A stretch of DNA of 64,000 nt, from NCBI GenBank assembly GCA_963708175.1, contig CAVPSD010000018.1, positions 7,935 to 71,934 of the forward strand, given 5' to 3'. This DNA is from an uncultured Acidimicrobiales bacterium (GTDB lineage: Bacteria > Actinomycetota > Acidimicrobiia > Acidimicrobiales > DATKAS01). The translations under genes and the position numbers were made by a program. This document shows, in pieces, positions 5,052 through 37,828 of the stretch. The notes beneath the pieces were generated by a model. The model saw only the letters and a program-made list of their open reading frames with translations. It searched no databases and was not told the DNA's origin. Each line of letters begins with the position of its first letter. Position 1 is the first letter of the stretch.

Positions 5052-5079
5052 CTCAGCCTGCCTTGAACGAGGCCGATCC
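5052..5079 (+). promoter_or_regulatory. Putative FliA/WhiG-type promoter upstream of nadA
   Basis: CTCA-N16-GCCGATCC; a sigma70-type TACACT follows at 5083-5088. Confidence 0.4.
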
Positions 5080-5216
5080 GCGTACACTTGGCATCACGCC
5101 GGCCTGGTCTCCGGCGTCATATCGAGCTCTGGGGCCGACATCCCCGTGGAGGGCGACCAGGCTGTCCCCACCGGCCGTCAACCAGCGCCTGTCCCCAAAG
5201 GGGAGGACAACCCAGC

Positions 5217-6332
5217 ATGTTGCGGATCCAGACCCCGCTGCCGGAGGGGTACACCGGTGCTGATCCCGATGACCTCGCGCGGCGCATCGGCGCGGCCAAA
5301 GACGCCCTCGGCAGCCGCGTGTTCATCCTCGGTCACCACTACCAGCGCGACGAGGTGATGCGCTGGGCCGACGCCCGCGGCGACTCCTTCCGGCTGTCCG
5401 TGCTCGCACAGCAGCGCGCGGATGCCGAGTTCATCGTCTTCTGCGGCGTGCACTTCATGGCCGAGTCCGCCGACATCCTCACGGGTGACCACCAGCAGGT
5501 GATCCTCCCCGACCTGAACGCCGGTTGCTCGATGGCTGACATGGCCGACATCGACTCGGTCGAGGAGGCGTGGGAAGCGCTCGATGCCGTGATCGACATC
5601 AACGTCCTCGTGCCGATCACGTACATGAACTCGTCGGCCGCGCTGAAGGCGTTCGTCGGCACGCACGGTGGCGCGGTTTGCACCTCGACCAACGCGCGCG
5701 CGGTCCTCGAGTGGGCGTTCCGACCGAAGTCCGAAGGCGGTGCGGGCGGGAGCAAGGTGCTCTTCTTCCCCGATCAGCATCTCGGGCGCAACACCGGTCT
5801 CGCGATGGGCTATACGCACGACGACATGCGCGTGTGGAACCCACGTCTGGATCGCGGAGGGCTCACGGAGCCCGATTGCAAGGAGGCGACCTTCCTCCTG
5901 TGGCGTGGGCACTGCTCTGTACACCAGCGGTTCCGCCCCGAGCACATCGACGCGTTCCGCGAGGCGCACCCCGACGGAATCGTCGTCGCCCATCCAGAGT
6001 GCAGCTACGAGGTCTGCGGGAAAGCCGACCAAGTCGGGTCGACCGACTTCATCATTCGCGCCGTCGACGCCGCACCCGCGGGATCAGTCGTCGGCGTCGC
6101 GACTGAGATCCACCTCGTGCAACGACTCGACGCCGAGACCCCCGGCAAGACCATCGTGTCGCTCGACCCACTGGTCTGCCCGTGCTCCACGATGTTCCGC
6201 ATCGATGCCCCGCACCTCTGCTGGGTGCTCGAGAACCTCGTCGAAGGCAACGTCGTGAACCGCATCACGGTCGACGGCGCGACGGCGGACGCGGCAAAGG
6301 TCGCGCTCGAACGGATGCTCGCGATCACGTGA
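5217..6332 (+). CDS. nadA: Quinolinate synthase
   Basis: ILGHHYQ, FCGVHFMAE, AGCSMADM, HCSVH, AHPEC, CPCSTM; SD GGAGG upstream of ATG 5217. Confidence 0.97.
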   Translation: MLRIQTPLPEGYTGADPDDLARRIGAAKDALGSRVFILGHHYQRDEVMRWADARGDSFRLSVLAQQRADAEFIVFCGVHFMAESADILTGDHQQVILPDLNAGCSMADMADIDSVEEAWEALDAVIDINVLVPITYMNSSAALKAFVGTHGGAVCTSTNARAVLEWAFRPKSEGGAGGSKVLFFPDQHLGRNTGLAMGYTHDDMRVWNPRLDRGGLTEPDCKEATFLLWRGHCSVHQRFRPEHIDAFREAHPDGIVVAHPECSYEVCGKADQVGSTDFIIRAVDAAPAGSVVGVATEIHLVQRLDAETPGKTIVSLDPLVCPCSTMFRIDAPHLCWVLENLVEGNVVNRITVDGATADAAKVALERMLAIT

Positions 6333-6380
6333 GAGCGCGGCGGTACGCTGAGCGCTCACTCATCGCAGGAGCGTGCTGAC

Positions 6381-7349
6381 GTGGACTCCGCCGTTTCCAA
6401 GGATGCACCGATCTTTGTCGCCGGCCATCGAGGCCTGGTCGGGTCGGCCATCTTGCGCAAGCTCGAAGCGCATGGGTACACGAACGTCCTGACCGCGACC
6501 CGCGCCCAGCTCGATCTGCGCGATCAGGCCGCGGTGAACTACTGGTTCCGCGATCACCGTCCGCGGTACGTGTACCTCGTCGCGGGAACGGTCGGCGGCA
6601 TCCTCGCGAACAGCACCCGGCCGGCCGAGTTCATCTACGACAACCTCATGATCCACGGAACCGTCGTCGAGGCGAGCTATCAGTCGGGGGCCGACAAGCT
6701 CCTCTACCTCGGCAGCTCGTGCATCTACCCACGAGACGCACACCAGCCCATGACCGAAGAGGCCTTGCTCACCGGTCCGCTGGAGCCGACGAACGAGCCC
6801 TACGCGATCGCGAAGATCGCCGGCATCAAGCTGTGCCAGTCGTACCGGGCCCAGTACGGCGCCAACTTCATCTCGGCGATGCCGACGAACCTCTACGGCC
6901 CGAACGACAACTTCGACCTCCAGAGCAGCCACGTGCTGCCCGCTCTCATGCGCAAGTTCCACGACGCGAAGGTCGCCGGTGTCCGCGAGGTCGAGGTCTG
7001 GGGCAGCGGCACCCCCCGTCGCGAGCTGCTCCATGTGGACGACCTCGCCGACGCCTGCCTGTTCCTCATGGACCACTACGAGGGCGATCTGCACATCAAC
7101 GTGGGCACCGGTGTCGACCTGAGCATCCGCGAGCTCGCCGAGACCGTGCGCGACGTCGTGCACCCAGACGGTGAGCTCGTGTTCGACGCGTCGAAGCCCG
7201 ATGGCTCCCCTCGCAAGCTGCTCGACGTCAGCCGCATCAACGCCCTCGGCTGGAAGGCGTCGATCGAGCTGCGCGAGGGCATCGAGTCGACCTATGCCTG
7301 GTTCCTCGAGAACCGGGGCGCCGACCCCCCTGCTACGACACCCGGGTGA
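6381..7349 (+). CDS. fcl: GDP-L-fucose synthase family epimerase/reductase
   Basis: [41 protein letters not shown]. Confidence 0.93.
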
Positions 7350-8073
7350 GGTAGCCCTGCGGCGCGGCGCTGAACGCCAACTTGCGGTCGACATCGACGT
7401 CGATTTCGAAGTTCGGGTGAGTGTGTAGGAACTCACGTACCGCCGTCTTCGGACTGTTGCCGGCCCCCCACGAGCGATCCCCGAGGAGCTCGGGCGCGAC
7501 GTCCTCGATGATCGTGTCGAACACCACGCAATAGCTGCCGACCGACGCGAGAGGCGCGTACGCCTCGAGCTCCGCGAGCACGTGATCATGGGTGTGGTTG
7601 CTGTCGAGCAGGACGAGGACGGGCGCGAGCCCGTCGACTTCTCGCTCCACCGCCGAGATCACGGCCGGATCCGTGCTCGAGCCTTCGATCATCAAGATGC
7701 GCCGAGCCATCGGATGGCTCTCGATGGCGGCCCGGTTGTGGGGTCGGATCTCGATGTCGACTCCGACGACCCGGGCATCAGCAGGTCCGCCGCACGCAGC
7801 GTTCAGCTCGAGCATCGATGCGGACAGGATCAACGAACCGCCGTGGGCGATGCCCGTCTCCACGATCACTCGCGGCTGGATCCGCCAGATGAGCTCCTGC
7901 ACGGCGACGATGTCCTGGGGGTACTGGATGATCGGCCGGCCGAGCCAGGAGAAGTTGTACGAGTACCGGGCTCGGAGCGACGACTCCATGAAGTCGTGAG
8001 CACGGCGAAGCAGCTCGTCGTCGTTCCCGTTCTGGCGCACGCGCCCAGCGACCTCTTCGTCAAATGACGTCAT
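7333..8073 (-). CDS. CmcI/cephalosporin hydroxylase-family (sugar O-methyltransferase-like) protein
   Basis: [43 protein letters not shown]. Confidence 0.88.
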
Positions 8074-8947
8074 CACGCACCTTGGCTCGCAGAAGACGGT
8101 CTGCCTTCGATCGGTCACCCCAAAATGACATGGGCTCGTAGTCAGGGTATGGGTAGCGCCCGAGCCGCGGCTCGATGTCCCAGCCCTGCTCGGCGATCCA
8201 ACCCTCGACCAGCTCGCGCACTGTCACCCCATGACCCGAGCACACATTGACGACGCCGTTGTCCGCACCCGTAAGCGTCAGGTCGACGAGCTCGCGCGCG
8301 ACCTCCTCTACCGGCAGGTAGTCGCGCACCTGCGCACCTCCCGACATGTCGAACACACGGTCACCTCTTGCGACTGCCGCCTTCAGCTGGGAAAGCAGCG
8401 CGCTGGGCGCCTGGCCGTCGCCGAACGTGTAGAAGATGCGAGCCCACGTCATGCAAAAGGCTGATCGGCAAGTGAGAGCTTCGAGACCGCGTCGGAGCCG
8501 ATCCTTGGCGATCGCGTAAGGGACGGTCGGTGATGCCGGCTTGGCCTCGCTCAGCTCGCCCATCTGCATCCCGTACTCCAGGCACGTACCGGCGACGACG
8601 AGGTTGCGGAGTCCCGACTCGGCGAGTGCCGACAAGTAGCCCAGATGGCCCGGCAGCTCCTGCTCCAGGTGCGACGGAGAGCGGTAGTCCGGCAATCCTC
8701 CCCAAGCGAGGTGAAGCAGCGTGCCAGGGCATCGCATCTGCTTGAAGGCCGCGTCAGGCGGATGACGAACGTCGAACACGACGACCTGGTGGGCGAGATG
8801 AGGTTGGGGGTGGCGTGCGATGATGACCGGTGAGACATCTCGACGCTCGAGCTCGGCGAGTACGTGCCTCCCGATGAACCCTGTCGCACCAGTGACGGCG
8901 ATCCTGCCTGTGTCGAGACGCTCGGTTTGAGGAAACCGAGTCACCAT
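8060..8947 (-). CDS. NAD-dependent epimerase/dehydratase (NDP-sugar reductase)
   Basis: [25 protein letters not shown]; start ATG 8947 overlaps the rfbF stop. Confidence 0.85.
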
Positions 8948-9708
8948 CGGTACCAGGGCGCACGACCCTCGGCCCAGAGCTGGTCGAGCTGGTGCTTGTC
9001 GCGGAGCGTGTCCATGGGTTGCCAGAAACCTCGATGGCGATAGGCACCGAGCTGCCCGGCCGAGACGAGCCGAGCCATCGGCTCGCTCTCCCATGACGTC
9101 TGGTCGTCATCGATGAGCTCCACCACCGAGGGCTCGAGGACGAAGAATCCCCCGTTGATCCACTGACCATCGCCGTCGGGCTTCTCCACGAAACCGACCA
9201 CCTGCTGCTCGTCGATCACGAGCGCGCCGAAGCGGCCGGGCGGCTGAACAGCGGTGACCGTGGCGCGGAGCCCTGAGGTCTTGTGGTAGGCGACGAGCGC
9301 GGCGATGTCGATGTCGGCGATCGCGTCGCCGTAGGTGAGGCAGAACGTTGCGTCACCGATGTGCTCCGCGACTCGCTTAAGCCGACCGCCCGTCATCGAG
9401 CTCTCACCGGTGTCGACCAGCGTCACTCGCCACGGCTCGGCTTGCGCGTGGTGCACTTCGGTCGTGTTTCGGCCGAGGTCGAACGTGACGTCTGAGGCAT
9501 GTAGGAAGTAGTTCGCGAAGTACTCCTTGATCACATAGCCCTTGTACCCGAGGCAGACAATGAAGTCGTTCACGCCGAACAACGAGTAAGTCTTCATGAT
9601 GTGCCACAAGATCGGCCGGCCGCCGATCTCGACCATCGGCTTCGGTCGAACCTGTGTCTCCTCGCTGAGCCGACTGCCCAGACCGCCGGCGAGGATCACT
9701 GCCTTCAT
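8941..9708 (-). CDS. rfbF: Glucose-1-phosphate cytidylyltransferase
   Basis: [45 protein letters not shown]. Confidence 0.95.
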
Positions 9709-9767
9709 CGGGAGGCCAATCGTCGCGAGTCTCGGGGACTGACGTGATCCACGCCCATAGTGTTGTC

Positions 9768-9795
9768 CCATCGGCGAGTCGGAGCGGGGCATGAG
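9768..9795 (-). promoter_or_regulatory. Putative FliA/WhiG-type promoter upstream of rfbF
   Basis: Minus strand CTCA-N16-GCCGATGG. Confidence 0.55.
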
Positions 9796-10903
9796 CAGGA
9801 TGCAGCCACTCGTGATGCTCATCTCACTCGGTCGTCCGCAGGGGATGGGTGAGGGCAAGCGTGTCGCGTCCCTCGAGATGATCTTCGAGCGCGCCGGCGC
9901 GGAGGTGGTCCAGGCGCAACTGCTTCGGGACTTCCGGGCACGACCTCGTGATGTGCTGGACATCGACGTCGTGTCGTTCGCACGCGGCGCCGCAGTGCCC
10001 GAATCGTTGGCATGGTCGCGCCGGCGCCTCCTACGTCATCTCGAGTCGGTCCGGCCCGACGTCGTGCTGTGCGTCACCGGACGCGCCTACCACCCGGCGA
10101 TCAGCCGCGGGCCCTGGGTGACCGTCCTCGACCTCGTCGATTGCCTGAGCACGAGCTATCGCGACCGCTCCATGATCGCCGGGCCCGGTCCCAGCCGGGT
10201 CATGTATCGCGCTCTGGCCTGGTCGACGCGCCGCTTCGAGAGACAGCCAGTGGCGTCATCGGTCACGCGGATCGCAGCAGGGTGGAGCGACGCCGAGCAT
10301 CTCGGGGCGCACTGGATCCCGATCACGATCGAGATCCCAACCCCCCTCGTTCCGGACGGCGGCCAGCCGGGGCACGATCTCGTGTTCTTCGGGAACCTCA
10401 GCTATCCCCCGAACCTCGAGGCAGTTGAGGCGCTCGCCCGGATGTGGCCCCGCTTGATGGCGGTGCACCCTTCGACGTCGTTGCTGCTCGCCGGCGCCCA
10501 TCCGACCAAGCGCGTCATCGAGCTGACGCGTCGATGGGACTGGACGCTCATCGCCGACTTCGCCGACCTGCGCGATGTCTTGTCAAAGGCGCGACTCGGG
10601 GTAGTGCCCCTGCTCCACGCGAGTGGCATCCAGATCAAGATCCTCGAAACGGCCGCGTTCGGCCTCGCCCAGGTGGTTTCGCCCGCTGCGCAAGCCGGGC
10701 TGGCGCCGGGCTTCCCGACCGCCCTCGCGGCGGATGAGCGAGCGTTCGTCGCGCACATCGTGGACCTCCTCGAGGATGACGCTGGGCGGTCCGGGCTCGG
10801 AGCAGCGGCCCGTGCGCACGTGGCGTCGGAATACACGGCGGAGCGCTGGGCGGGTTGGGCGGCGGGTCTCCTGAGTGCGTCCGAGGAGCGCGCCTCACGC
10901 TGA
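9791..10903 (+). CDS. Glycosyltransferase, GT4-like
   Basis: [31 protein letters not shown] (GT-B C-terminal motif). Confidence 0.8.
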
Positions 10904-12100
10904 CGCGGCACCGGCCGCCATCCGCCGGTCGACCGCCACCCAGAGGAGGAGCGCGAGCACGCAGTTCGCGGCGAGCGTGGCGAATGCGGCGCCGTTCATC
11001 TCGGCCGCCGGGATCAGCGCGAAGTTGAGCAAGAGGTTGAGACTCGCCGCACCGATGAGGTACCGCGCATAGGGCCGGTCGCCTCCGAGCGCAAGCATCA
11101 GGTCGTGCAGCGGTGCCGAGGCGGTGATGACCGCGGTCGAGAGCATCAGAATCACGAGTGGCAGGCGACCCGAAGAGAAGGCGGACCCGAACACGACCGG
11201 CACCAGAAGCGCTGTCGGCACCGCGAGCACCGCGAGCGCGACGCCAGCACGTGCGCTCCAACGCATCGTCGCGGTTCGAAGGGCGGCGGCGCGCTCGGGG
11301 CCCTCACTCACCACGCTGGTCGCCACCGGGAGGAGCCCCCACCGCAAGATCGATAGCAGCGCGAGCCACGCGTTGGGGATTCGGTACACCGCTGCGTAGA
11401 TCCCCGCATCGGACGCCGACACGAGCCACGCCAGAAGAAGTGTGTCCGCCGTCGAAAGCACCTGGTTCGCGATGAGAGCCGCGAGCATCCACGCGTCGAT
11501 CTGCACATGCCCGCCGTCATCGGCCGGGAGGCGATTGAGCACGAGCGAGAGGACGAGCGCCGCGAGATAGGCGAAGGCCGGAGCGGCGGCGGGCCGATCG
11601 AGCGGAAATGCCAACGCCCCCGCGAACAGTGCGAGACCTTGCACCGCGCTGGGCAGCGCGGCGCGACCGCCCCGCTCACGCCCGAGTGCGAGCCAATCTC
11701 GATTGAGCCCCAACGCCATGAGGACGGTCACGAGGGGGACGAACTCGACGTGCCCTGTGGCAGCGACAAGCGCGCAGTAGGTGATCGCCAGCAGTGCGGT
11801 GACTCGAGTCCGGACGCGGACGAGCGACCTGATGTGCGCCCCCCCGTGGCCTCCGGCGACGTCGCGGACGCCTCGCACCGAGACCCCGAAGTCCGCGACG
11901 AGACCGCCATAGCGGCAAAGAAGAAACGCGACCGACAGCTCGCCGAAGCCACTGGTGCCGAGCCGACGGGCTAAGACGATCCACCCCGCGAACTCGGCTG
12001 CCTGGCCTGATGCCCGCAAGAGGAAGAACGGGACCGTCGTCGCGCGCCAGCGCTTGGAGAGCGACGAAGACAACGGCTGAGGGGCGGGTGCGTCGGGCAT
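10895..12100 (-). CDS. Wzx-like polysaccharide flippase (MOP family)
   Basis: Polytopic; LARRLGTSGFGEL, ADTLLLAWL...AGIYAAVYRI, NLLLNFALIP..GAAFAT. Confidence 0.8.
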   Translation of the reverse strand: MPDAPAPQPLSSSLSKRWRATTVPFFLLRASGQAAEFAGWIVLARRLGTSGFGELSVAFLLCRYGGLVADFGVSVRGVRDVAGGHGGAHIRSLVRVRTRVTALLAITYCALVAATGHVEFVPLVTVLMALGLNRDWLALGRERGGRAALPSAVQGLALFAGALAFPLDRPAAAPAFAYLAALVLSLVLNRLPADDGGHVQIDAWMLAALIANQVLSTADTLLLAWLVSASDAGIYAAVYRIPNAWLALLSILRWGLLPVATSVVSEGPERAAALRTATMRWSARAGVALAVLAVPTALLVPVVFGSAFSSGRLPLVILMLSTAVITASAPLHDLMLALGGDRPYARYLIGAASLNLLLNFALIPAAEMNGAAFATLAANCVLALLLWVAVDRRMAAGAASA

Positions 12101-12142
12101 AGCAGGTGCGCTCTCGGAGCGAGCCTACGGGAGGGCAGGATC

Positions 12143-12170
12143 CTCACCTTGCACCTCGAGCGACCGACAA
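12143..12170 (+). promoter_or_regulatory. Putative FliA/WhiG-type promoter upstream of the GT2-rfbG operon
   Basis: CTCA-N16-ACCGACAA. Confidence 0.45.
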
Positions 12171-12180
12171 GATGAGAGCA

Positions 12181-13089
12181 ATGCCCGGCTGCTTCCCCGC
12201 ACCGCTCGTGTCGATCCTGGTGCCGACCTACAACCGTGCGAACCAGCTCTCTGCCGCGCTCGACTCAGCGCTTGCGCAGAGCCATCGGCCTATCGAGATC
12301 GTCGTCTCGGACAATGCATCGAGTGACGAGACACCCTCGATCTGCCAGCGCTACGCGATGCGCCACCCGGAACTCCGCGTCGTGCGTCACGACGAAAACT
12401 GCGGTCCCACTCGCAACTTCGAGTCTCTTCGGGACGTGGCACACGGCGAGTACATGATGTTCCTCGGTGACGACGACTGGCTGGACGTCGATTACGTGTC
12501 CCGCTGCCTGGAGGTGTTCCGCGAACACCCCGACGCCACCGTGGTCGCCGGCCGTGCGATGTACCACCCTGCGCCAGGTGTGCCGACATTCCGTGACGAG
12601 TCGGTCACGATCGACGACCAGGACCCCTCCCGGCGTGTGATCGCGTACTTCCGGTCTGTCATCCGTAACGGTGTCTTCTACGGCCTGGTGCGCACCTCGG
12701 CGGATCGGCAGGTCGAACCGCTGCGAAACAGGATGGGTAACGACTGGCTGCACGTCGCCGCACTGGCATTCCTGGGTCAGATGCGGGTGATCGACGAGGT
12801 CGCGATCCATCGCAGCGCCGGCGGCATGACCACCAGCTTGCGACACGTCGCTCGTGGGCTCGGGCTAGGGCCCGTCCAAGCCAACGTCCCGCTGCTGGCC
12901 ATCGTCTATTGGGTGTTCGAGGACATCGCAATCGGCTCGGATCTGTATCGGCCATTGCGCCTGCCGAGACGAATCACCCTCGCCTCCAAGTGCGCAGGCC
13001 TGCTGCTCGTCCGTTTCGCCGGTCTCGTCGCGACCCGCGCCCAAGCGCGCGCGCGGAGCCTCCGCAACCGGTTCCGGAACGGAGCGTGA
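12181..13089 (+). CDS. Glycosyltransferase family 2
   Basis: VSILVPTYNR, VSDNASSD, FLGDDDW; start uncertain (12172 or 12181). Confidence 0.88.
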   Translation: MPGCFPAPLVSILVPTYNRANQLSAALDSALAQSHRPIEIVVSDNASSDETPSICQRYAMRHPELRVVRHDENCGPTRNFESLRDVAHGEYMMFLGDDDWLDVDYVSRCLEVFREHPDATVVAGRAMYHPAPGVPTFRDESVTIDDQDPSRRVIAYFRSVIRNGVFYGLVRTSADRQVEPLRNRMGNDWLHVAALAFLGQMRVIDEVAIHRSAGGMTTSLRHVARGLGLGPVQANVPLLAIVYWVFEDIAIGSDLYRPLRLPRRITLASKCAGLLLVRFAGLVATRAQARARSLRNRFRNGA

Positions 13090-13090
13090 C

Positions 13091-14146
13091 ATGACGGCTG
13101 ACGCCCGCTTCTGGCGGGAACGCGACGTGCTGATCACTGGGCACACCGGCTTCAAGGGCGCGTGGCTCGCAGCGGTGCTCTCCGAGCTCGGCGCCAACGT
13201 GACTGGTGTCGCCCTTCCGCCGGTGCGCGGCGGAATCTACGACGCAGCGGACGTCGGGTCCCGGGTGGACTCGCGGATCCACGACATCCGGGATCGGGAC
13301 TCGCTCCGAGCGACAGTCATCGAGGTCCAACCGGAGGTCGTGTTCCACCTTGCCGCCCAGGCGGTCGTGTCGGTCGGCTACGCAGACCCGCTGGGTACGT
13401 TCGAGACGAACGTGCTTGGCACCGCCAACCTCCTCGACGCGGTGGGTGATGTTCGGTCGGTCCGCGAAGTGCTGGTTGTCACGAGCGACAAGGTCTATGC
13501 GAACGACGGACGTGGCCGACCGTTCTCGGAGGGCGATTCCCTCGGAGGCGGCGACCCCTACAGCAGCAGCAAGGCTGCCTGCGAGCTCGTCGTCGGGTGC
13601 TGGCGTTCGCTCCTCGCGGGGCGCGACATCCGCGTGGTCTCGGCGCGTGCTGGCAACGTCATCGGTGGCGGCGACGTCGCCCCGGATCGGCTGCTCCCAG
13701 ATGTGTTCAGAGCTCTCGAGGCCGATGGGTGCGTGCGACTCCGACATCCGGAGTCCACTCGACCGTGGCAGTTCGTCCTCGATGCGGTCTTCGGCTACTT
13801 GACCTACGTGGAGCGGTTGGCTGCCGACCCGTCGCTCCCCCCGGCGCTGAACTTCGGCCCGAGCCCGAGCGGCGAGCGCACGGCTCGTGATCTCGTCGAG
13901 GCCGTGCTTCGCGAGCTCGGCGAGGGACGTTGGGAGCCGACTGCCGCGCGTCCGGGCCCCGAGGCGGCCACGTTGCCCCTTGACGCCACCCTCGCGGCGG
14001 AGACTTTGGGTTGGCGGCCGGCTCTCGACCTCGACTCGGCCGTGCAGTGGACATGTGAGTGGTTCCGGACGTCGCAGGCCAGGGGGGATGTCGCGGCCCT
14101 TTGCGCTGATCAGATCACGCGCTACCGCGCTTTGGTGGGCAGATGA
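13091..14146 (+). CDS. rfbG: CDP-glucose 4,6-dehydratase
   Basis: ITGHTGFKGAWL, HLAAQ, TSDKVY, DPYSSSKA, RAGNVIGGGD, RPWQ. Confidence 0.95.
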   Translation: MTADARFWRERDVLITGHTGFKGAWLAAVLSELGANVTGVALPPVRGGIYDAADVGSRVDSRIHDIRDRDSLRATVIEVQPEVVFHLAAQAVVSVGYADPLGTFETNVLGTANLLDAVGDVRSVREVLVVTSDKVYANDGRGRPFSEGDSLGGGDPYSSSKAACELVVGCWRSLLAGRDIRVVSARAGNVIGGGDVAPDRLLPDVFRALEADGCVRLRHPESTRPWQFVLDAVFGYLTYVERLAADPSLPPALNFGPSPSGERTARDLVEAVLRELGEGRWEPTAARPGPEAATLPLDATLAAETLGWRPALDLDSAVQWTCEWFRTSQARGDVAALCADQITRYRALVGR

Positions 14147-29038: not shown

Positions 29039-29067
29039 AGAGGGCGGGCCTGCTGGGCCCGCCCTCT
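29039..29067 (+). terminator. 12-bp GC stem-loop between pilin 1 and pilin 2 (terminator or stability hairpin)
   Basis: AGAGGGCGGGCC-TGCTG-GGCCCGCCCTCT; weak U tail. Confidence 0.7.
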
Positions 29068-29110
29068 GCTCCTCCCCACTTCCCCCAAGAAGAGAAGGTT
29101 GGTTTCTGAC

Positions 29111-29478: not shown

Positions 29479-29652
29479 ATGCGAGCACAATCGGTGAAGC
29501 GGTTTCACGGCGACGAGGGCGCGACGATGGTCGAGTACTGCCTCATGGTCGGCTTGATCGCGATGGTGTGCTTCCTCGCCGTGCAGTACCTGGGCAACCG
29601 GACAAACGGCGGCTACACGACGTTCAACAGCTCGCTCACGGCAGCGAGCTGA
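29479..29652 (+). CDS. flp: Flp pilin 4 (divergent)
   Basis: MRAQSVKRFHGDEG|ATMVEYCLMVGLIAMVC; SD GGAGG. Confidence 0.9.
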   Translation: MRAQSVKRFHGDEGATMVEYCLMVGLIAMVCFLAVQYLGNRTNGGYTTFNSSLTAAS

Positions 29653-29782: not shown

Positions 29783-31249
29783 TCAGCGCGAGGCGTGACG
29801 GCGCACGGCGACGATCCACCCCGGATCGCTGTACCGCAGCTGCCAGTCGGGTGACTCGGTGAGCACGACTGACAGGGGGTACCCGCGCTGCCAGACGACG
29901 GTCTGGATGTCGTGGCGGTCGAGCACTTCCTTCCAGTGCTGGGTCCCCGCCAAGAGGGTCACGTAGTCGTCGGCGGTCTGCTTGTCGAACACCTCGGCGC
30001 GATCGTCGACGAACACGTCGCCGATCGGGCCGTCGAGGTACTCCCGGAGGTTTCCGACGAAGTCCTGCGCCAGCAGGCGCCCCTGGCTGCCATCCGGGGG
30101 GGGCACCAGGCCCTCGTCGCGAGCGAAGGCGAGCGCCTGCACGGGATAGGACCGCAGGTCGAGGCTCGGTTGCCCCACCGGTGTCACGAGCGTCGCGAAG
30201 CAAAGCACCACGAGCGCCGCGGCACCCGCCCAGGCGACGATCGGTGACGAGAGCCTCGCATCGGCCTTCAGGTCGCCGAGCCCCTTCAGGCTCGGCGCCA
30301 TCGCCGCGGTGAGCACGAGGCTGGCGACGAGGATGTTCCGGGCGCTGTACAGGGCCGCCGGGATCAGCACGATCATCGGCAACGCCAGCCGCCAGCTCGG
30401 ACGGCGGACGAGCACGAAGATGGCGGCGGCGATCTGGACGAGGAAGAGCTGCTGCCACAGGGCGTCGAAGGTCGGCGCCTTCCACTCGATGATGTTGCGC
30501 AGGACGTCGCTGCGCTGGAGCAGAAGGACGGGGAAGACGAGGAGCTTCGGCCCGTAGGGGTTGATGGCGCCTGCCACGACGCCGACGGTCGCCCACAGGA
30601 GGCAACGCCACTCAGTGGTGCCCTCTTCGCGGTCCAGGCGGCGCCCGAGCCACAGGAGTCCGAGCGCGACCAAGCCGAGGGGGAACGATCCGTGGGCGTT
30701 CACCCAGACATACATGACGGGCACGAGCCACCGCGGGTCGAGCCCGCCATCCGCGGCGATCAGCAGGATCCCGAGCAGGACGAGGCCGATCATGAGTGGG
30801 CGCGGCGCCCACGCACTGGCACCGACCCCGAGGGTCAGTGCCACGAGCGCCAACCGAGCGATGAACCCATCGGCGGGACGCGCCAGGCGCACGATCAGGA
30901 GCGCCAGGACCGCGGTGAGCACACCCTGCAACCCCACGATCGCTCCGATGCCCCATGCCTTGATCAGCGCCCAATACAGCGTGGAGGCGAGCCAGCTCTG
31001 GACCACCCAGGAGGCGGCGTGCGGGGTGAACAGGTAGGGGTCGGCGCGCGGAAACCCGGTGTCGAAGATGATCCGGCCTGTCGCGATGTGCGTGAGAGTG
31101 CTGTTGTCTCGTACGGGCTGCAGCCCGAGGAAGATCCCCCACGCGAGCGCGAACAGCCAGATGAAGGTCCCGAGGGTCGGCTGCCACCGAGGCCTGGAAG
31201 CCGCCGCGTCAGCCTCGGCAGCCGTGGCCGGCTGGAGCTCGGTGGCCAT
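29783..31249 (-). CDS. Polytopic membrane protein at the end of the Tad operon, putative GT-C/oligosaccharyltransferase-like
   Basis: D..LTHIATG...DPYLFT...W...SWL loop, RP, WVNAHGSF, IIEW, VFVDDR; function inferred. Confidence 0.6.
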   Translation of the reverse strand: MATELQPATAAEADAAASRPRWQPTLGTFIWLFALAWGIFLGLQPVRDNSTLTHIATGRIIFDTGFPRADPYLFTPHAASWVVQSWLASTLYWALIKAWGIGAIVGLQGVLTAVLALLIVRLARPADGFIARLALVALTLGVGASAWAPRPLMIGLVLLGILLIAADGGLDPRWLVPVMYVWVNAHGSFPLGLVALGLLWLGRRLDREEGTTEWRCLLWATVGVVAGAINPYGPKLLVFPVLLLQRSDVLRNIIEWKAPTFDALWQQLFLVQIAAAIFVLVRRPSWRLALPMIVLIPAALYSARNILVASLVLTAAMAPSLKGLGDLKADARLSSPIVAWAGAAALVVLCFATLVTPVGQPSLDLRSYPVQALAFARDEGLVPPPDGSQGRLLAQDFVGNLREYLDGPIGDVFVDDRAEVFDKQTADDYVTLLAGTQHWKEVLDRHDIQTVVWQRGYPLSVVLTESPDWQLRYSDPGWIVAVRRHASR

Positions 31250-31264: not shown

Positions 31265-32176
31265 TCAGAAGGAGTTGACGATGTTGATGACCGCGGGGGC
31301 GAGCACCACGATGAAGATCGACGGGAAGATGCACAGCACCATCGGCACCAGCATCTTCACCGGGGCCTTCATCGCCTTCTCCTGGGCGAGCTGACGGCGC
31401 TTGATGCGCATCTCGTCCGCCTGCGTGCGGAGCACGCGTCCGATCGAAACGCCGAAGGTGTCGGCCTGAAGGATCGCGAGGACGAACGAGCGCATCTCCG
31501 GCACGTCGCAGCGCCGCTCGAGCGCGCGCAACGACTCAGCCCGGGAAGCACCGGCGCGGATCTCGCCGAGCATGCGGGTGAACTCCTGGGCCAGCGGGCC
31601 CGGCACAGCTGACGTGGTGCGGTCGAGCGCCTGCTCGAAGCCGAGACCGGCCTCGACGCTGATCACGAGGAGGTCGAGCATGTCAGGCAGCTTCGTGCGG
31701 ATCTGCCACTGCCGATCGGCGACCTTGCGGTTGAGCATCGCGTCAGGACCGAGAACGAGCAGCAGGACTGCGAGCCCGATGACCGCGAGCCGGATCAGAC
31801 CCTCGATGGGCGCGAACTTGTAGACGACGAAGATGACGATCGGCACGAGCGCGATCGTGACGACGCGCACGGCGAGGAAGCGGTCCACGTCGTCGTTGCC
31901 GTGAGTGCCCAGCGTCGAGAACTTCTGGCGGACGTTCTCCAGGTAGCCGTGCGGAGTGAAGCGCCGGCCGATCGCGGTCAGGCCCTTCATCACCGGTGCG
32001 ACCGCGCGCTCCTTGAGCGGGTTGAGCAGCTCTTGATCGCGGACGTTCTCGACTTCGTAGTCCTCGAGCTGACGCAGCGAGCTGCGGACGACCACGCGCT
32101 CCTGCGCCTGTGAGAGGAGGGCATAGACGACGAGCGCGATGCCCGCCCCGATGCCGATGACTGCGAACGTGAGCAT
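31265..32176 (-). CDS. tadC: Tad assembly protein TadC (T2SSF family)
   Basis: LPDMLDLLVISVEAGLGFEQAL, QADTFG, KAPVKMLVP. Confidence 0.9.
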   Translation of the reverse strand: MLTFAVIGIGAGIALVVYALLSQAQERVVVRSSLRQLEDYEVENVRDQELLNPLKERAVAPVMKGLTAIGRRFTPHGYLENVRQKFSTLGTHGNDDVDRFLAVRVVTIALVPIVIFVVYKFAPIEGLIRLAVIGLAVLLLVLGPDAMLNRKVADRQWQIRTKLPDMLDLLVISVEAGLGFEQALDRTTSAVPGPLAQEFTRMLGEIRAGASRAESLRALERRCDVPEMRSFVLAILQADTFGVSIGRVLRTQADEMRIKRRQLAQEKAMKAPVKMLVPMVLCIFPSIFIVVLAPAVINIVNSF

Positions 32177-32178: not shown

Positions 32179-34138
32179 CTAGACCTCGATCTCGATCACC
32201 TTCTTCATCCAGAAGAAGCCAACGAGCGCGAGCACGATGCCTCCGAGGATGAGAAGCTGACCAACGGTTTCTTCGAAGAGGGTCCGGATGTAGTCCGGGT
32301 TGATCACGTACATCGCGACGCCGAGGATCGGCGGGAGCAGCGCGAGGACGATGGCGCTGATGCGGCCTTCGGCGGTGAGCGCCTTCACGTCACGGCGAAG
32401 GCGTTCGCGCTGAAGCATTGTCTCGGACACGATCATGAGGAGCTCGGCGAGGTTGCCGCCGACCTCTCGCTGGATGCGGATCGCCATGACCGCCCACTCG
32501 AAGTCGGGGCTGCCCATGCGCGCTGCGGCATCGTCGAGCGCGGTCTCGAGCGGCCGGCCGAGGCGAGCCTCGACCATGACCCGACGGAGCTCGCGACCCA
32601 TCGGGTCCTCGACCTCCTGCGACACGGCCTCGACGCCCTGCTGCAGCGAGTAGCCCGCACGCAACGAACCCGAGAGCAGCTGCAACGTGTCGGGCAGCTG
32701 GCTGAGGAACGCCGCCTGGCGCTTCCGGGCCCTGCTGTTGAGGTAGAAGGGCGGGACGATGATGAACACGCCCAGGACCAGGAGGGCGACGAGGAAGTTC
32801 TGGCTGAGCACCAGGACGAGCGCAGTCACCACGACCGTCGAGCGCGACGTAGAAGAACATCGCCTCGGCTGCTCGAAGCGGCATGTCCGCCCGTTCGAGC
32901 GCCGCCTCGACACGAGCCAGGAAGCCCCGATTCGCGGCGAACTGGCCGGTGAGCTCGACCGCCCGCTGCAAGACCTTGGTCTGGGCGAGGCTGCCCGCGT
33001 TCGGATCCTCGTCCTCGTCGGCGTCACCGACGTAGGTGTCGGCGTAGGGCTGAAGGACCGTCTCGAGCTCGCTGCGGTCACGGAAGAAGATGAGCCCGAT
33101 GCCGTACGCGAGCAGGATCAGCGCGGCGAGGGCGAGAAGGCCGCCGATGTACTTGCCGCTGGTGCCCGAGATGAAGCTCGGCCCGCCGGCGAGCGGCGGG
33201 TTGTACACGTCGGGCGACAGTGCGTTCCCGATCGTGTTGCTGCCGGGGTTGTACGTCGCCTTCGCCGAGGTGTCGCCGGCCGAGACCACGAGGTCGACCG
33301 TCGTCGCAGCCGGGTCGCTCACATACGAAAGGAGCACCTGCGCGTTGATCGTGCCGCCGACCAGAGCGACGGTGTCGGGCACCTTGCTCATGTCGTCGAG
33401 CTGCGTGTACGTGCCGTGGGTCGTCGACACCTGGCTCTGGAGGCTGCCGCTCGAGAGCTCGCCGGTGTCGAGGCCGACGCCGAACACCATGACATTCGAG
33501 TCGAGGAGATCGCCCTGGACCTCACCGTCGGTGCTGACCGAGGGGTCGGTGCCGCCGGCTTGGAAGACGACGACGTTTCCTTGCAGCGTCGTGTCGTCGA
33601 GCAGGCTCAGCGCCGTCCGCATGCCGTCCCGCTCGGACGACTCGGGCCGTTCGAGGGACGGACGCAGCGTCGCGATGGCGGACTGCAGGGTGGCCGTGTC
33701 CGTGGTGAAGTTCGAGACGACTCGCGCGGTGACGCCGAAGCTGACGATCGCGATCTTCTGGTTCGCGAGGCGCCTGGCGACCGCGTCCGTGAGCGAGGCC
33801 TTGGTCTTGTCCATGGCCTCTTGCTTGCCCATCGCCGCGCTGGTGTCGACCATGTACACAATGCCGACGCCGGTGCCGACATCGGTGAGTGATGCGGCCT
33901 GCACAGGCGACACGGCCTCACCGTTCTGCTGCACCTCGTAGCTCGAGGGTGACGGCGCGGGCCCGACCGGCAGCACGACGACGCTCGTGTCCGGATACTT
34001 GAGCGCGTCGACCGAGCGGATGACGAGCCGCTTGTCGTCGTCGGCGTGCGCGGTGCCGGCAAAGCCCGCGAACAGCGAGAAGACCAACACCACGAGCGCG
34101 GCGAAGCGAAGGTCGCGGAAGCGGAATGACGAACGCAT
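32179..34138 (-). CDS. tadB: TadB with N-terminal secreted VWA-like domain (frameshift near 32842)
   Basis: Signal-like N-terminus, VYMVDTSAAM, AIVSF; C-terminal QLPDTLQLLSGSLRAGYS, REVGGNLAE, KALTAEGR. Confidence 0.85.
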
Positions 34139-35497
34139 CAGAGGCTCGATGCTCGGCGTGCGAAGACCTCGGGCTGGAACACCTCGGGGCCGAGGCGGAT
34201 GCCGAGGTCGGCGAGCTTCTCGGCGAACTTCGGGCGCACGCCGGTCGCCTTCAGGTGACCGCGGAAGCGACCGTCTTCGTCGACGCCCATGCCGTAGTCG
34301 AAGAGGAAGATGTCCTGCAGGGTGATGACGTCACCCTCCATGCCTTGCACTTCGGTGACGTGGGTGATGCGACGCGTGCCGTCCCGGAGGCGGCTCAGGT
34401 GCACGATGAGGTCGAGCGCCGACGCCATCTGCTCACGGATCGCTCGCACCGGCAGGTCGAAGCCGGACATGAGGGTCATGGTCTCGATGCGGGCGAGCGT
34501 GTCGCGCGGGCTGTTGGAGTGGACAGTCGTGATCGAGCCGTCGTGGCCGGTGTTCATGGCCTGGAGCATGTCCAGTGCCTCACCTGAACGGCACTCTCCG
34601 ACGACGATGCGATCGGGGCGCATACGAAGGCAGTTGCGCACCAGGTCGCGGATCGTGACCTCGCCTCGACCCTCGATGTTCGGTGGACAGCGCCTCGAGC
34701 GAGAGCACGTGCTCCTGATGGAGCTGCAGCTCCTTCGAGTCCTCGACCGTGACGATGCGCTCGTCAGAGGGGATGAACGACGAAAGGACGTTGAGGGTCG
34801 TCGTCTTGCCAGTGCCGGTACCACCCGAGACGATGACGTTGAGGCGACCGACGACGCACGCCTGCAAGAAGCGAGCGGCGTGCGCGTTGAGGGTGCCGAA
34901 GCGGATCAGGTCGTCGATCTGGTACGGGTCCGTGGAGAACTTCCGGATCGTGAGGTAAGGACCGCCGATCGCGAGCGGGTGGATGATCGCGTTCACGCGT
35001 GAGCCGTCGGGCAGACGCGCGTCGACCATGGGCGTCGCCTCGTCGATGCGCCGGCCGACCTGGCCGACGATCTTGTCGATGATCCGACGCAGATGGGTCT
35101 CGTCGACGAAGGACGCATTCGACTTCTCGATGCGACCGGCGCGCTCGACGAACACCGTGTCGGGGCCGTTCACCATGACCTCGGTGATGTCTTCGTCTTT
35201 CAGGAGGCGATCGATGGGCCCGTAACCGAGGATGTCGTCCGAGACGTCCTGGATGAGCTGGGCCTTGTCGGCAGCCGACAGCGGGGCCCGCTCTTGGGCG
35301 AGCGCGGCCTGCAGCTGCTCGTGCACCCGACGGCGCAGATCGTCCTCGGAGAGGCGCCGGTCATAGAGGACCGGACCGAGCGAGTCGATCAGATGGTGGT
35401 GGATCTTCTGCCTGAGCTCGTCGAGGATCGGATCCCGCCGAGAGCTCGTCGCGCCCGATGTGGCCTGTACCTCGTGGAGCCGCTTGTAGAGCGACAT
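34138..35497 (-). CDS. cpaF: Tad secretion ATPase TadA/CpaF (frameshift at about 34689)
   Basis: [33 protein letters not shown]; deleting one base restores EARPPNIEG. Confidence 0.93.
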
Positions 35498-35534: not shown

Positions 35535-35561
35535 TCATCGGCCGGGGGGTCCAGGACTGAA
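35535..35561 (-). promoter_or_regulatory. Putative FliA/WhiG-type promoter upstream of cpaF
   Basis: Minus strand TTCA-N15-GCCGATGA (compare TAAA-N15-GCCGATAA). Confidence 0.6.
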
Positions 35562-35565: not shown

Positions 35566-36780
35566 CTAACGCCGCCGCTTCGCGTCCGCCGTGAGGAACA
35601 GGTCAGCGAGCTGCTCGAGCGCCTTGGCCACGCCGGACTTCGGCGCATCGAGCACGACCGGAGTGCCCCGGTTCACCGACTGGGGCACCACGACGTCGCT
35701 CGGCACCAAGCTGTCCGCCTTGATGCCCAAGGTCCGCTCGACCTCACCGACGTCCAGCTTCACCTTGCTGTTCGCCCGGTTGAGGACCAGCTTCAGCTTG
35801 GAGAGCGGGATGTTCAGCAGACGGAGGGTCTGCAGCCCGATCTTCACGTTCTTGATGTTGGGGATGTCCATCCCGGCGACGAGGAGGACATCGTCACTCG
35901 CCTCGATGAGGCCGAGCACCACGTCGTTGAAGTACGCCGGAGCGTCGACGACGACGAAGGCCGAGGTCTGCCGCAGGAGCTCGATGATGCGAAGCATCTG
36001 CGACGAGCCGATCTGATCCGCGAACGCAGGCTCGAGGGGCGCAGGCATCACGAGAAGGCTCGAAGGATCATGACGAGCCAGCAGACTCTGCAGCAGCGGA
36101 CCATCGAGCTTGTCGATCGCATTCACCGCATCGACAATCGTGTGTTGCGGAGCGAGCTTCAGCATGACGGCGACGTCGCCGAACTGCAGGTCCGCGTCGA
36201 CGAGCACCACCGGCCTCTCGGAGCGGCGAGCCAGGGTCACGGCAAGGTTCACCGCGATGACCGACTTGCCCGCGCCACCCTTCGTCGAGAACACGGTGAT
36301 CAGACGGCCGTATCCGGCCGTCGCCGCCGAGCTCTCAGCGGGCACGCCGGGCGTCGACGGCGCGAGGCTGCCGCCAACGCGCTGCACGGCGAGCAGGAGC
36401 TCACCCGCCTCGACCGGTGCGGCCAGGACATCCTTGACGCCCGCGCGAAGCGCGCGCTGCAACACATCGGTGGAGAGCGCCTCGACCATGAGGACCGTGC
36501 CGACCTCGGGCCACGAGCGCGTCAGGCGCTCGACTGCAACGAGACCCGCCGGGCCCGCACATGACGGTCCGAGAAGGGCAACCACCGGTTCTCCCGCCTC
36601 GAGCCGCTCTTCGAGCGACTCGATCGTCGGGAATGCCGCTGCTCGGACCCCATCGCCGAGATCTGTGATGAGCTGGGAACGAAGGGCTGGATCGCTCTCG
36701 ATGACGGCCACGTTGAAATCGGCCATCGGCACCTCATTGCCGGGATAGCCGGCGTTCAGGGTCGTGGGGGACTGCTCCAC
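35566..36780 (-). CDS. cpaE: TadZ/CpaE (atypical receiver domain plus MinD-like ATPase)
   Basis: STKGGAGKSVIAVNLA, VDADLQFGDV; alternative start ATG 36726. Confidence 0.9.
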   Translation of the reverse strand: MEQSPTTLNAGYPGNEVPMADFNVAVIESDPALRSQLITDLGDGVRAAAFPTIESLEERLEAGEPVVALLGPSCAGPAGLVAVERLTRSWPEVGTVLMVEALSTDVLQRALRAGVKDVLAAPVEAGELLLAVQRVGGSLAPSTPGVPAESSAATAGYGRLITVFSTKGGAGKSVIAVNLAVTLARRSERPVVLVDADLQFGDVAVMLKLAPQHTIVDAVNAIDKLDGPLLQSLLARHDPSSLLVMPAPLEPAFADQIGSSQMLRIIELLRQTSAFVVVDAPAYFNDVVLGLIEASDDVLLVAGMDIPNIKNVKIGLQTLRLLNIPLSKLKLVLNRANSKVKLDVGEVERTLGIKADSLVPSDVVVPQSVNRGTPVVLDAPKSGVAKALEQLADLFLTADAKRRR

Positions 36781-36801
36781 GCTAGGGCATCTCCTCTGGG
36801 A

Positions 36802-37617
36802 TCAACCGCCAGCCGGGTAGGGCGTGAGCACCCCAGGCAGGAAGAGGGTCGAGAAGTCCACCGGCGGGAGATCGACCGGCTGGAAGTCCTTCGGTGCGAG
36901 CGTCATGTAGAGGTTGCCTCCCGCGAGGGCGATGCGCTGCGCAGCGTCCGGCGGCACGTTGAACGTGATGAGGCCGCTGCCCGGGTTCGCCGGAGCTTCG
37001 GTCGCACCGACATCCGCGGCCGCGGTCTGGCCGATCGCGAGGATCTCGACGTTCTGGTACAGGTAGCGCACCGTCTCCGCACCCTCAGCGACGCCCTCGG
37101 CCGCGGGGGCCACTGCGCCGGGCTGACCGCCACCAGCGAGAGCGGCAAGCGCGGGGTCGAGGACGACCATGAGGTTCACCTTGTCGCCCGGCACGAGCAG
37201 GCCGGCGACACCGTGCACCTGATCCACCGAGACGGTGACGGCGACTTGGTCGACCGGGATCCGCTCGGAGAAGGTCACGAACGCCGTGGCCTGATCGACG
37301 AACATGCCGTCGACGACCACCTGGCCGGGAACGAGGTCCGTCAGAGCGACCTTGCCGTCCAACACCGCGGTGTCGGTGATGGCCGTCGCGGGACGGAACT
37401 CCTGCGGGATCTGGCCCGCCTGGACCAGCTTGTCGCCAACGGCTTGATCACCGGGCGTGCCCTTGGCGATCGGTTGCTTCACGACGTACACCTGGACGCG
37501 CTTCGCGTTGTCGTACGCGCGGTCCTCGACGCCGTTCACATAGTTGTAGAGCGCGTACGCAGCGATCGCTCCGATGAGCACCGCTGCAATCAAGATCACC
37601 GTACGCCGAGAGCCCAC
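36802..37617 (-). CDS. cpaB: Flp pilus assembly protein CpaB/RcpC
   Basis: N-terminal TM, SAF-like VVKQPIAKGT, GVAGLLVPGDKVN, QNVEILAIG; GTG start 37617 with SD. Confidence 0.9.
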   Translation of the reverse strand: MGSRRTVILIAAVLIGAIAAYALYNYVNGVEDRAYDNAKRVQVYVVKQPIAKGTPGDQAVGDKLVQAGQIPQEFRPATAITDTAVLDGKVALTDLVPGQVVVDGMFVDQATAFVTFSERIPVDQVAVTVSVDQVHGVAGLLVPGDKVNLMVVLDPALAALAGGGQPGAVAPAAEGVAEGAETVRYLYQNVEILAIGQTAAADVGATEAPANPGSGLITFNVPPDAAQRIALAGGNLYMTLAPKDFQPVDLPPVDFSTLFLPGVLTPYPAGG

Positions 37618-37701
37618 AAGTACCTCACTCGTCTCGCCGACCGAAGCTCCGCTTCGCTCGGTCCCGTGTCGCTCGCGAGTTGCACTCGCACTGCCGCTAC
37701 T

Positions 37702-37729
37702 TGGTCGGCAGTCGTCTCGCGATCGTGAG
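37702..37729 (-). promoter_or_regulatory. Putative FliA/WhiG-type promoter upstream of cpaB
   Basis: CTCA-N16-GCCGACCA; a second candidate GTCA-N15-GCCGACAC at 37767-37793. Confidence 0.5.
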
Positions 37730-37828
37730 CGCTTCGGGTGCGAATGAGGCCCCGCCGGCCTCGGGTGTGTCGGCGCTCGCCCGTCAGCATGACAGAGGCG
37801 CCTAGGAAGAAAAGGGGATGCCAGCGAA

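Follow-up and report, generated by a model that had tools for sequence, protein, structure and literature searches.

We examined a stretch of 64,000 nucleotides (nt) from an uncultured Acidimicrobiales bacterium (contig CAVPSD010000018.1 of assembly GCA_963708175.1; the whole stretch is called the window here, and positions count from its first letter), in which conserved housekeeping genes surround a surface-glycan cluster and a Tad/Flp pilus locus. Seven transcription units in this part of the window are preceded by the bipartite motif YTCA-N15-17-RCCGAY, which an earlier note, made from the letters alone, had read as a candidate promoter of a sigma-28-type (FliA/WhiG-like) factor. The genome studied, G000, is an assembly of 3.77 Mb in 19 contigs, with 68.6% G+C and an estimated completeness of 74%. 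A codon-likelihood caller trained on the whole G000 genome gave 3833 genes and 85% coding sequence, and the gene families of the window were assigned by Pfam. Other G numbers denote related Acidimicrobiales genomes, and the genus set consists of G000 and 10 relatives.

The glycan genes begin behind nadA (5217-6332, plus strand, ATG at 5217) with an fcl-like epimerase gene (6381-7349, plus), followed on the minus strand by genes that Pfam assigns to a CmcI-type O-methyltransferase (7333-8040), an epimerase (8060-8947) and an rfbF-like nucleotidyltransferase of the NTP-transferase family (8941-9708). GT1 (9791-10903, plus) and a wzx-like gene (10895-12100, minus) come next, and then a plus-strand block, likewise assigned by Pfam, of GT2 (12181-13089), a 4,6-dehydratase-like (rfbG-like) gene (13091-14146), a C-methyltransferase gene (14143-15372) and a dTDP-sugar 3,5-epimerase gene (15369-15935), with a Bac_transf priming glycosyl-phosphate transferase gene (15945-17255, minus; 189.8 bits in Pfam) at the end. 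From species to species in the genus, the set of glycan genes that lies between nadA and the priming transferase (6333-15940) varies: the flanks are 82 to 85% identical, whereas the genes in between have been exchanged or sit at a different locus, a pattern that resembles O-antigen or capsule loci.

The pilus locus opens on the plus strand with genes for a GAF histidine kinase (26114-27982) and a LuxR response regulator (27996-28673), a pair that lies directly upstream of four flp pilin genes (28807-29013, 29111-29284, 29284-29448 and 29479-29652). The processing motif G/ATMVEY is present in all four flp genes, and Pfam Flp_Fap (PF04964) matches the first and the last. On the minus strand lie an unknown 488-aa gene (29783-31249), tadC (31265-32176, Pfam T2SSF), tadB (32179-33081, T2SSF, 75.6 bits), a 582-aa VWA-domain open reading frame (ORF; 32390-34138, Pfam VWA_2), cpaF (34138-35497, Pfam T2SSE), a gene for a TadZ/CpaE-like ATPase (35566-36780) with CbiA/ParA domains, a receiver domain and a weak TadZ_N match, and cpaB/rcpC (36802-37617, Pfam RcpC, 62.2 bits). 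Flp pilins together with CpaF, TadB/TadC, TadZ/CpaE and CpaB/RcpC mark the locus as one for a Tad/Flp (type IVc) pilus; a prepilin peptidase (TadV/CpaA) was not recognised among the scanned window genes, in which no family search was aimed at TadV/CpaA. The cpaF gene of G000 is frameshifted near 34580-34623 and falls into a 305-aa and a 161-aa frame that overlap, where relatives have a single frame of 460 to 487 aa and G007 and G019 have similar splits; in an assembly of this fragmentation and completeness, an indel error is as likely as a true pseudogene. The VWA_2 ORF overlaps the tadB frame, the VWA/tadB boundary is unsettled, and a second frameshift may exist there.

YTCA-N15-17-RCCGAY has 12 matches in the window, of which five lie within coding sequence and seven are intergenic. 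These seven are the bipartite sites of the earlier note, all of them present where it placed them and each oriented with a gene whose start lies 13 to 140 nt downstream. At every site the -10 box is RCCGAY with a central CGA and the spacing is 15 to 17 nt; the -35 box is CTCA at five sites and TTCA, one mismatch from CTCA, at two, with canonical TAAA at none. A -10 core of CGA behind a -35 box of (C/T)TCA is a known form of sigma-28 promoters. Since the pattern had originally been fitted by eye, we counted every pattern of the same form, [2-fold]NNN-N15-17-[2-fold]NNNN[2-fold], in the 34 upstream regions of the window (3999 nt). YTCA-N15-17-RCCGAY came out at the top, being present in seven of the 34 regions where 0.074 matches were expected (Poisson P 2.3e-12); among unrelated patterns of this form the lowest P was about 6e-7, and the best pattern in each of 60 dinucleotide shuffles had a median P of 5e-7 and a minimum of 2.2e-9. 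This composition-aware statistic was substituted for a raw-count test whose result was borderline, some GC-rich pattern having occurred in at least seven regions in five of 200 shuffles.

Genome-wide, 36 of 2469 upstream regions carry the motif in the sense orientation, as against 13.2±3.5 in 100 shuffles (maximum 23, so that no shuffle reached the observed count), and in antisense the number is 21. Eight upstream regions have the strict core CTCA-N16-GCCGAT (0.6±0.9 in shuffles), and a reversed control pattern showed no enrichment (five upstream regions, 6.2±2.3 expected). Matches are clustered locally: the stretch 5000-38000 has 18 upstream regions, and seven of them carry one (hypergeometric P 2e-9 relative to the genome-wide 36 of 2469). 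The density of the motif is 0.045 per kb per strand in coding and 0.059 in intergenic DNA; coding sequence as a null background, which gave a 1.3-fold enrichment, was dropped in favor of shuffled upstream regions and the reversed pattern, because codon usage itself generates the pattern and makes coding DNA a poor background. The motif is non-random, and the enrichment over a composition-matched background that the earlier note had asked about is found both in the window and across the genome.

The candidate promoter of the flp array (TTCA-N17-ACCGATAC, 28714-28742, plus strand, 67 nt upstream of flp1) is the best supported of all the predicted sites. The strict motif stands upstream of the flp1-type gene in all 10 genus genomes whose DNA covered the gene, and when 11 upstream regions of three families are aligned, CCTATTCA and CCGATACT are invariant while the spacer varies. 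In nine other families, compared by anchoring on CGA[TA]A, every flp1-type gene has this core at -41 to -72, and most of these regions have CCTAT at a fixed distance from it. Among relatives the -35 box of the flp site can also be TAAA (G019) or TTAA (G013 and G030). A GC-rich hairpin (GGGCGGGCC...GGCCCGCCC) 3' of flp1, at about 29040-29100, is conserved in the genus and might act as a partial terminator, fixing how much major pilin is made relative to minor pilin.

Assembled contigs from four of 23 soil metatranscriptome runs (X1 and X2 apparently being one data set, and DNA carry-over being possible) match 28814-29052 and 29075-29238, that is, flp1 and flp2. Two records of 199 and 164 nt match these genes without any difference, and the matches span 28814-29297, so this lineage or a near-identical strain was present, and possibly expressed, in public soil RNA libraries. 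The contigs begin at or beyond 28814, which is past the predicted transcription start, and say nothing of transcript ends; they are compatible with expression and prove neither expression nor a start site.

The candidate cpaB-tadZ promoter (CTCA-N16-GCCGACCA, 37702-37729, minus strand) has an invariant -10 box, CTGCCGA, in G000 and its 10 genus relatives, with a -35 box of CTCA in nine and CTTA in two. A distant cpaB locus, whose CpaB is 49% identical, has CTCA-N16-GCCGATTC, and two very distant loci (CpaB 36 to 38% identical) have TTCA-N17-GCCGACCA. For the candidate internal cpaF promoter (TTCA-N15-GCCGATGA, 35535-35561, minus) the support is moderate. The putative site is kept in the genus relatives; as the entire gap in front of cpaF is conserved in the genus, its conservation there is no footprint.

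In the glycan cluster, the candidate promoter of the rfbF-epimerase-O-methyltransferase operon (CTCA-N16-GCCGATGG, 9768-9795, minus strand) recurs with rfbF homologues at a different locus, where the motif lies 10 to 99 nt upstream in G005, G007 and G008 and a TTCA variant lies further upstream in G009, giving four of five genomes with a site; none was found upstream of the homologue in G006. The candidate promoter of the GT2-rfbG-C-methyltransferase-3,5-epimerase operon (CTCA-N16-ACCGACAA, 12143-12170, plus) likewise has counterparts, namely CTCA-N17-GCCGACAA at 9 nt upstream of the rfbG homologue of G007 and an intergenic CTCA-N16-GCCGACAG ahead of the rfbG gene block of G005. At the candidate promoter of the priming sugar transferase (CTCA-N16-GCCGATGC, 17313-17340, minus), CTCATTGC...GCCGATG is kept in all nine genus relatives that cover the place, and the spacers diverge. 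Where a non-homologous glycan gene comes first after nadA, a site of the form CTCAAC...GCCGAC stands ahead of it in six of 10 relatives; the counterpart in G005 is a CTAA variant.

Flagellate members of the order provide positive controls. With a relaxed pattern ([CT]T[CA]A-N15-17-NCCGA[ACT], searched in intergenic gaps with simple gene calls), we found CTCA-N17-GCCGATAT upstream of fliM in G036 and CTCA-N16-GCCGATCT in G024, as well as matches upstream of flbD (G024), flhA (G024, G025 and G028) and flagellin (G028). G000 itself has CTCA-N16-GCCGATAC upstream of a flgN-like gene, right after a terminator-like hairpin. The flgN site is present in all six genus loci fetched, and in other families CT[CA]A-N16-GCCGAT lies 34 to 55 nt upstream of flgN in five of eight genomes with unrelated spacers; G020 has a GTCGAT variant, and no site was found upstream of flgN in G034 and G028. 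The -10 boxes of the flp and flgN sites are both (A/G)CCGATAC. The conservation in related Acidimicrobiales that the earlier note proposed to check is thus found at flp, cpaB, the priming transferase, the rfbF homologues and flgN, with the boxes kept and the spacers diverging at flp, cpaB, the priming transferase and flgN; it does not extend to nadA, nor beyond the genus at cpaF.

The other 32 co-oriented upstream matches in G000 include three of 11 GGDEF genes (hypergeometric P 1.5e-4). These three are GGDEF-EAL genes, and diguanylate cyclase and phosphodiesterase (DGC/PDE) genes are a recurrent, not a defining, class of target in such regulons. A tadE-like gene and a pilT-like ATPase gene also have upstream sites (two of three T2SSE loci carry one), as do flgN, an MBOAT gene, an adenylate cyclase gene and a gene for a CAP-domain protein; the remaining upstream matches are a mixed lot, about as many as chance would give. 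The themes among these putative targets match those of published WhiG regulons.

The remaining members of the original set fared less well. The site upstream of nadA (CTCA-N16-GCCGATCC, 5052-5079, plus strand), beside uvrC (3337-5046, minus), is doubtful as a sigma-28 promoter. The sequence that follows it (TACACT; GCGTACACT) is invariant, and from there a leader of about 100 nt runs to the ATG of nadA. Within the leader (5080-5216), about 100 nt are almost invariant in the 11 genus genomes and precede a variable hairpin. The part at 5133-5176 scores 18.2 bits with the Rfam nadA (NAD+) riboswitch, RF03013 (E 0.076, 201 nt searched), which is below the gathering score of 37.5, and the leader may be a divergent NAD+ riboswitch in Actinomycetota; a search of the whole window against Rfam gave a tRNA as its sole match. 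A lone GCCGATAG box, which the earlier note had added to its set, is indeed present at 22022-22029 (minus strand); we rejected it as a promoter, given that no YTCA lies 15 to 17 nt upstream and that it abuts the ATG of a 573-aa gene and the GAGAGG ribosome-binding site, with which it overlaps. The 573-aa protein (20293-22014, minus) resembled a GT-C/PMT_2 cluster in a feature search, which is a lead only. The neighboring housekeeping genes, all on the minus strand, are uvrA (17394-20246), uvrB (22044-24059), coaE (24069-24689) and, behind the pilus locus, rpsA (37888-39213).

A factor of the family that the motif calls for is encoded in the genome, as the earlier note had supposed. G000 has 28 Sigma70_r2 matches. 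The gene product at C17:168796-169470 scores 268.6 bits against TIGR02479 (FliA_WhiG; cut-off 189.6) and matches Streptomyces venezuelae WhiG (chain 6pfj_A) over its full length with 322 bits. Its neighbors are xerC/dprA-like genes and an rpsB-tsf-pyrH-frr block (names read from N-terminal sequences). These surroundings match the synteny in Streptomyces. A second sigma-28 paralogue (C11:197026-197964) has its TIGR02479 match at C11:197125-197790 with 188.9 bits, against the same cut-off of 189.6, and is more distant from WhiG (152 bits); PDB matches back the family assignment of both sigmas. A homologue of RsiG, the anti-sigma partner of WhiG, is encoded at C8:302419-303027 (202 aa); it matches S. 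venezuelae RsiG (6pfj_T) over its full length (72.7 bits, E 3e-19) and Rubrobacter RsiG with an E of 1e-5, and its first E-x3-S-x2-R-x3-Q-x3-D motif is exact at residue 60. Motif-like sequences lie near all three genes: CTCA-N16-GCCGATCT in the C17:169695 region, 108 nt before whiG and within the xerC-like gene, at its 3' end; CTAA-N16-GCCGATCT in the C11:196964 region, 62 nt before the second sigma gene; and TTCA-N17-GCCGAAGC, overlapping the called start codon of rsiG, whose true start may be further downstream. They hint at autoregulation, but the pattern had been loosened ad hoc to find such relaxed matches, and we did not use them as evidence.

The second sigma gene is convergent with an operon of the flgN-like gene (FlgN family, Pfam 47.7 bits, cut-off 30.5) and a 53-aa ORF, the whole occupying C11:197026-198640. 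The adjacency of sigma and flgN holds in G000 and nine of 10 genus relatives, the tenth having the two genes on different small contigs, and FlgN is also adjacent or close to a sigma of the same clade in flagellate and non-flagellate genomes of other families. In enterobacteria, flgN stands behind a sigma-28 (class 3) promoter in flgMN, beside the regulatory genes of the sigma. In G000, by comparison, no FlgM was recognised, and the genus yielded no flagellar structural genes. The 53-aa ORF after flgN has no Pfam match; it is 77 to 84% conserved in all six genus loci, with only short weak matches elsewhere, and is conceivable as an anti-sigma candidate. A LuxR/GerE-type helix-turn-helix gene lies directly upstream of flgN in G020, G029, G038, G011 and G024, and, with the GAF kinase and LuxR regulator pair ahead of flp in the window, LuxR-type regulators may recur as partners of the regulon. 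FlhA and flagellin were not found in G000, and FlhA was found in none of the 11 genus genomes (57 to 96% complete), although it is present in seven of 30 other families of the order; both sigma types are present in 11 of 11 genus genomes. A tree built from two outgroups and 24 sigma-28 segments of the order, none of them a reference sequence of preprint 10.64898/2026.01.14.699351, has two clades, one holding the C17 sigma (98/98 support) and the other (95/93) the C11 sigma together with the four FlhA-linked sigmas.

Control of type IV pili by WhiG is already published, and the kind of regulon proposed here is known. In Rubrobacter, a WhiG-RsiG-cyclic di-GMP (c-di-GMP) system governs type IV pilus and DGC/PDE genes through TAAA/GCCGATAA promoters backed by start-site mapping; the same paper reports that WhiG-like sigmas drive pili and flagella in Actinoplanes, and a twin-motif RsiG in three of four Acidimicrobiales species (PMC8325347). 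Preprint 10.64898/2026.01.14.699351 distinguishes a flagellar WhiG1 without RsiG, with the reported consensus CTCA-N16-17-GCCGAACT, from an RsiG-controlled WhiG2 with T(A/C)AA-N16-GCCGATAA. It describes the two consensus sequences as too alike for regulon assignment, lists pili, chemotaxis, DGC/PDE genes and others as targets, and calls the control of WhiG1-type sigmas an open question in its discussion. Its WhiG1 consensus bears out the statement in the earlier note that a CTCA -35 box is reported for an actinobacterial FliA-type sigma. The main text of this preprint does not contain "Acidimicrobi", "Tad", "glyc", "polysaccharide" or "FlgN", and its supplementary tables may list such targets. 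Outside the Actinomycetota, FliA is reported to control a TAD operon in Bdellovibrio (PMC5430801). A literature search combining WhiG with glycosyltransferase or polysaccharide regulons returned nothing relevant, and in what a search combining Acidimicrobi and WhiG listed, no account of an Acidimicrobiales WhiG regulon was noticed.

Rubrobacter radiotolerans, which is non-flagellate, and G000 are both actinobacterial, and both have WhiG, an RsiG homologue and sites at pilus and DGC/PDE genes. R. radiotolerans is unicellular and has sigma-28-type promoters in three transcription units of its pilus cluster (PMC8325347). That cluster consists of pil genes, whereas the pilus of G000 is of the Tad/Flp type; the Rubrobacter promoters are TAAA/GCCGATAA with mapped starts, whereas the predicted promoters of G000 have (C/T)TCA as -35; and G000 adds the glycan-cluster sites and a second sigma-28 paralogue with flgN. 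The sites of G000 share the CTCA -35 box and the spacing with the WhiG1 regulon of Actinoplanes missouriensis, in which WhiG-like sigmas transcribe flagellar and type IV pilus genes, and the place of the second paralogue in the clade of the FlhA-linked sigmas of the order is a further likeness to the FliA family of Actinoplanes. However, Actinoplanes is flagellate and lacks RsiG, in contrast to G000 with its RsiG homologue and a genus in which FlhA was found in none of 11 genomes, and its consensus -10 ends in AACT whereas that of G000 ends in T (GCCGAT). The WhiG-RsiG complex of Streptomyces (6pfj, 6pfv) has full-length counterparts in the C17 sigma and the C8 protein, at the 322 and 72.7 bits given above. 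In the sporulation switch of Streptomyces, WhiG targets the developmental regulators whiH and whiI, whereas the candidate targets in G000 are pilus, glycan and c-di-GMP genes, and the G000 protein differs from Streptomyces RsiG by an F for a Q in its second motif. Bdellovibrio has the link of a flagellar-type sigma to a Tad/Flp pilus operon that is proposed for G000, but it belongs to a different phylum and is flagellate, and the abstract of PMC5430801 mentions no glycan link.

We consider it likely that a sigma-28-family (FliA/WhiG) factor recognises the sites as promoters and through them drives pilus, glycan and further units in this apparently non-flagellate genus. The comparative evidence for this predicted identity is strong, and it supports the part of the earlier note's proposal that concerned an alternative sigma at both pilus and sugar operons. 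We infer the co-regulation of pilus and glycan, which the note had called one programme, from the shared promoter type, and control by c-di-GMP through RsiG by homology. The sigma factor would drive the flp array, cpaB-tadZ and probably cpaF-tadBC; at least three glycan units, namely the rfbF operon, the GT2-rfbG operon and the priming transferase; and, elsewhere in the genome, the GGDEF-EAL genes, the tadE-like gene, the pilT-like ATPase gene and the flgN-like gene. By analogy with Streptomyces and Rubrobacter, c-di-GMP-loaded RsiG would sequester WhiG, so that low c-di-GMP would turn on pili, glycan and c-di-GMP-turnover genes, with feedback. Alternatively or additionally, the flgN-linked second paralogue would read the sites.

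Several observations weigh against this picture. The -35 box (C/T)TCA differs from canonical TAAA, so that a standard TAAA/GCCGATAA search with up to two mismatches would miss the sites. About 13 of the 36 genome-wide matches equal the chance expectation, and any single site outside the conserved ones may thus be false. The relatives are non-independent samples, and the gene starts rest on the study's own caller. Single sites are also affected: none of the 10 relatives in the genus keeps the -10 box at nadA; at cpaF the site is confined to the genus, having been found in none of nine other-family genomes with a usable start (in a tenth, G027, the start estimate was misplaced); the GT2 site lies just 13 nt from the called start, which leaves the start or leader uncertain; and GT1 and the wzx-like gene have no site, so the glycan cluster is not uniformly covered. 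The soil RNA contigs show only that flp sequence is present in such RNA libraries. Finally, the second c-di-GMP motif of the RsiG homologue reads E-x3-S-x2-R-x3-F-x3-D.

Within the sigma-28 family, a more specific arrangement can be imagined in which the second sigma outlived the flagella and was rewired, reading (C/T)TCA-N16-GCCGAT as a master switch for pilus, glycan and c-di-GMP genes, with WhiG-RsiG adding the c-di-GMP input and the glycan serving perhaps for glycosylation of the pilin or the envelope. We regard this as tentative and rather less probable than not. Its leads are that FlhA was found in none of the 11 genus genomes, that the pair of sigma and flgN is kept, that the sigma falls in the FlhA-linked clade and that the motif ahead of flgN is kept. 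In addition, no WhiG-clade copy was found in G019 and G030 at E<=1e-40, and yet both have a sigma-28-type flp box, and genomes with a close CpaF (at least 60% identity, a cut-off of this study's own, among relatives that are not independent) nearly always have the second-sigma clade.

A narrower explanation accepts sigma-28 promoters at flp, cpaB and flgN as the only true targets and takes the glycan sites for functionless look-alikes, with no link between glycan and pilus. It has in its favor that footprints across the order exist only for those three, that the glycan sites can be traced only within one genus, that GT1 and wzx lack a site and that some 13 chance matches are expected genome-wide. 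Set against this, only 0.074 chance matches are expected in the upstream regions of the window, yet three to four fall in the glycan cluster; the boxes ahead of the priming transferase are kept in nine of nine relatives while the spacer drifts; and the motif recurs where rfbF and rfbG homologues stand at another locus, and also before a non-homologous post-nadA glycan gene in six of 10 relatives. We consider it unlikely that the glycan sites are look-alikes.

Slightly less credible still is a reader outside the sigma-28 family, either another alternative sigma, sigma genes being many in this genome (28 Sigma70_r2 matches), or a regulator that binds DNA, for which the LuxR-type response regulator beside flp is a candidate. 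The kinase and regulator pair directly upstream of flp (26114-28673), the LuxR-type genes upstream of flgN in several families and the noncanonical -35 box would all suit it. But the -10 box GCCGAT(A) with its invariant CGA is a hallmark of sigma-28 and CTCA is the -35 reported for WhiG1, the same motif stands before fliM, flhA, flagellin and flgN in flagellate relatives, and a fixed spacing of 15 to 17 nt with strict orientation and no dyad symmetry fits a sigma factor rather than a dimeric regulator. That the seven sites are a chance cluster picked post hoc is very improbable, since the borderline raw count (five of 200 shuffles) and the nearly equal hit density in coding DNA are outweighed by a composition-aware P far below the minimum of 60 shuffles, a genome-wide excess reached in none of 100 shuffles and the conservation of sites in relatives.

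Promoters of a sigma-28-family factor therefore remain the reading that we prefer, and what is new in it is the glycan operons as putative targets and a flagellar-type sigma-FlgN pair in a genus in which no flagellar genes were found. Published WhiG/FliA-family regulons in the Actinomycetota cover flagella, type IV pili, sporulation and c-di-GMP enzymes. To these, the present analysis would add an uncultured soil Acidimicrobiales lineage, a Tad/Flp pilus as target and glycan operons that share a promoter despite the changing content of their locus. The genus also offers a natural test case for the role of a flagellar-type sigma and FlgN once flagella are gone, and it bears on the open question of how WhiG1-type sigmas are controlled (preprint 10.64898/2026.01.14.699351). 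If the proposal is true, the production of surface sugar and pili would be switched together, probably in response to c-di-GMP, in organisms known only from metagenomes.

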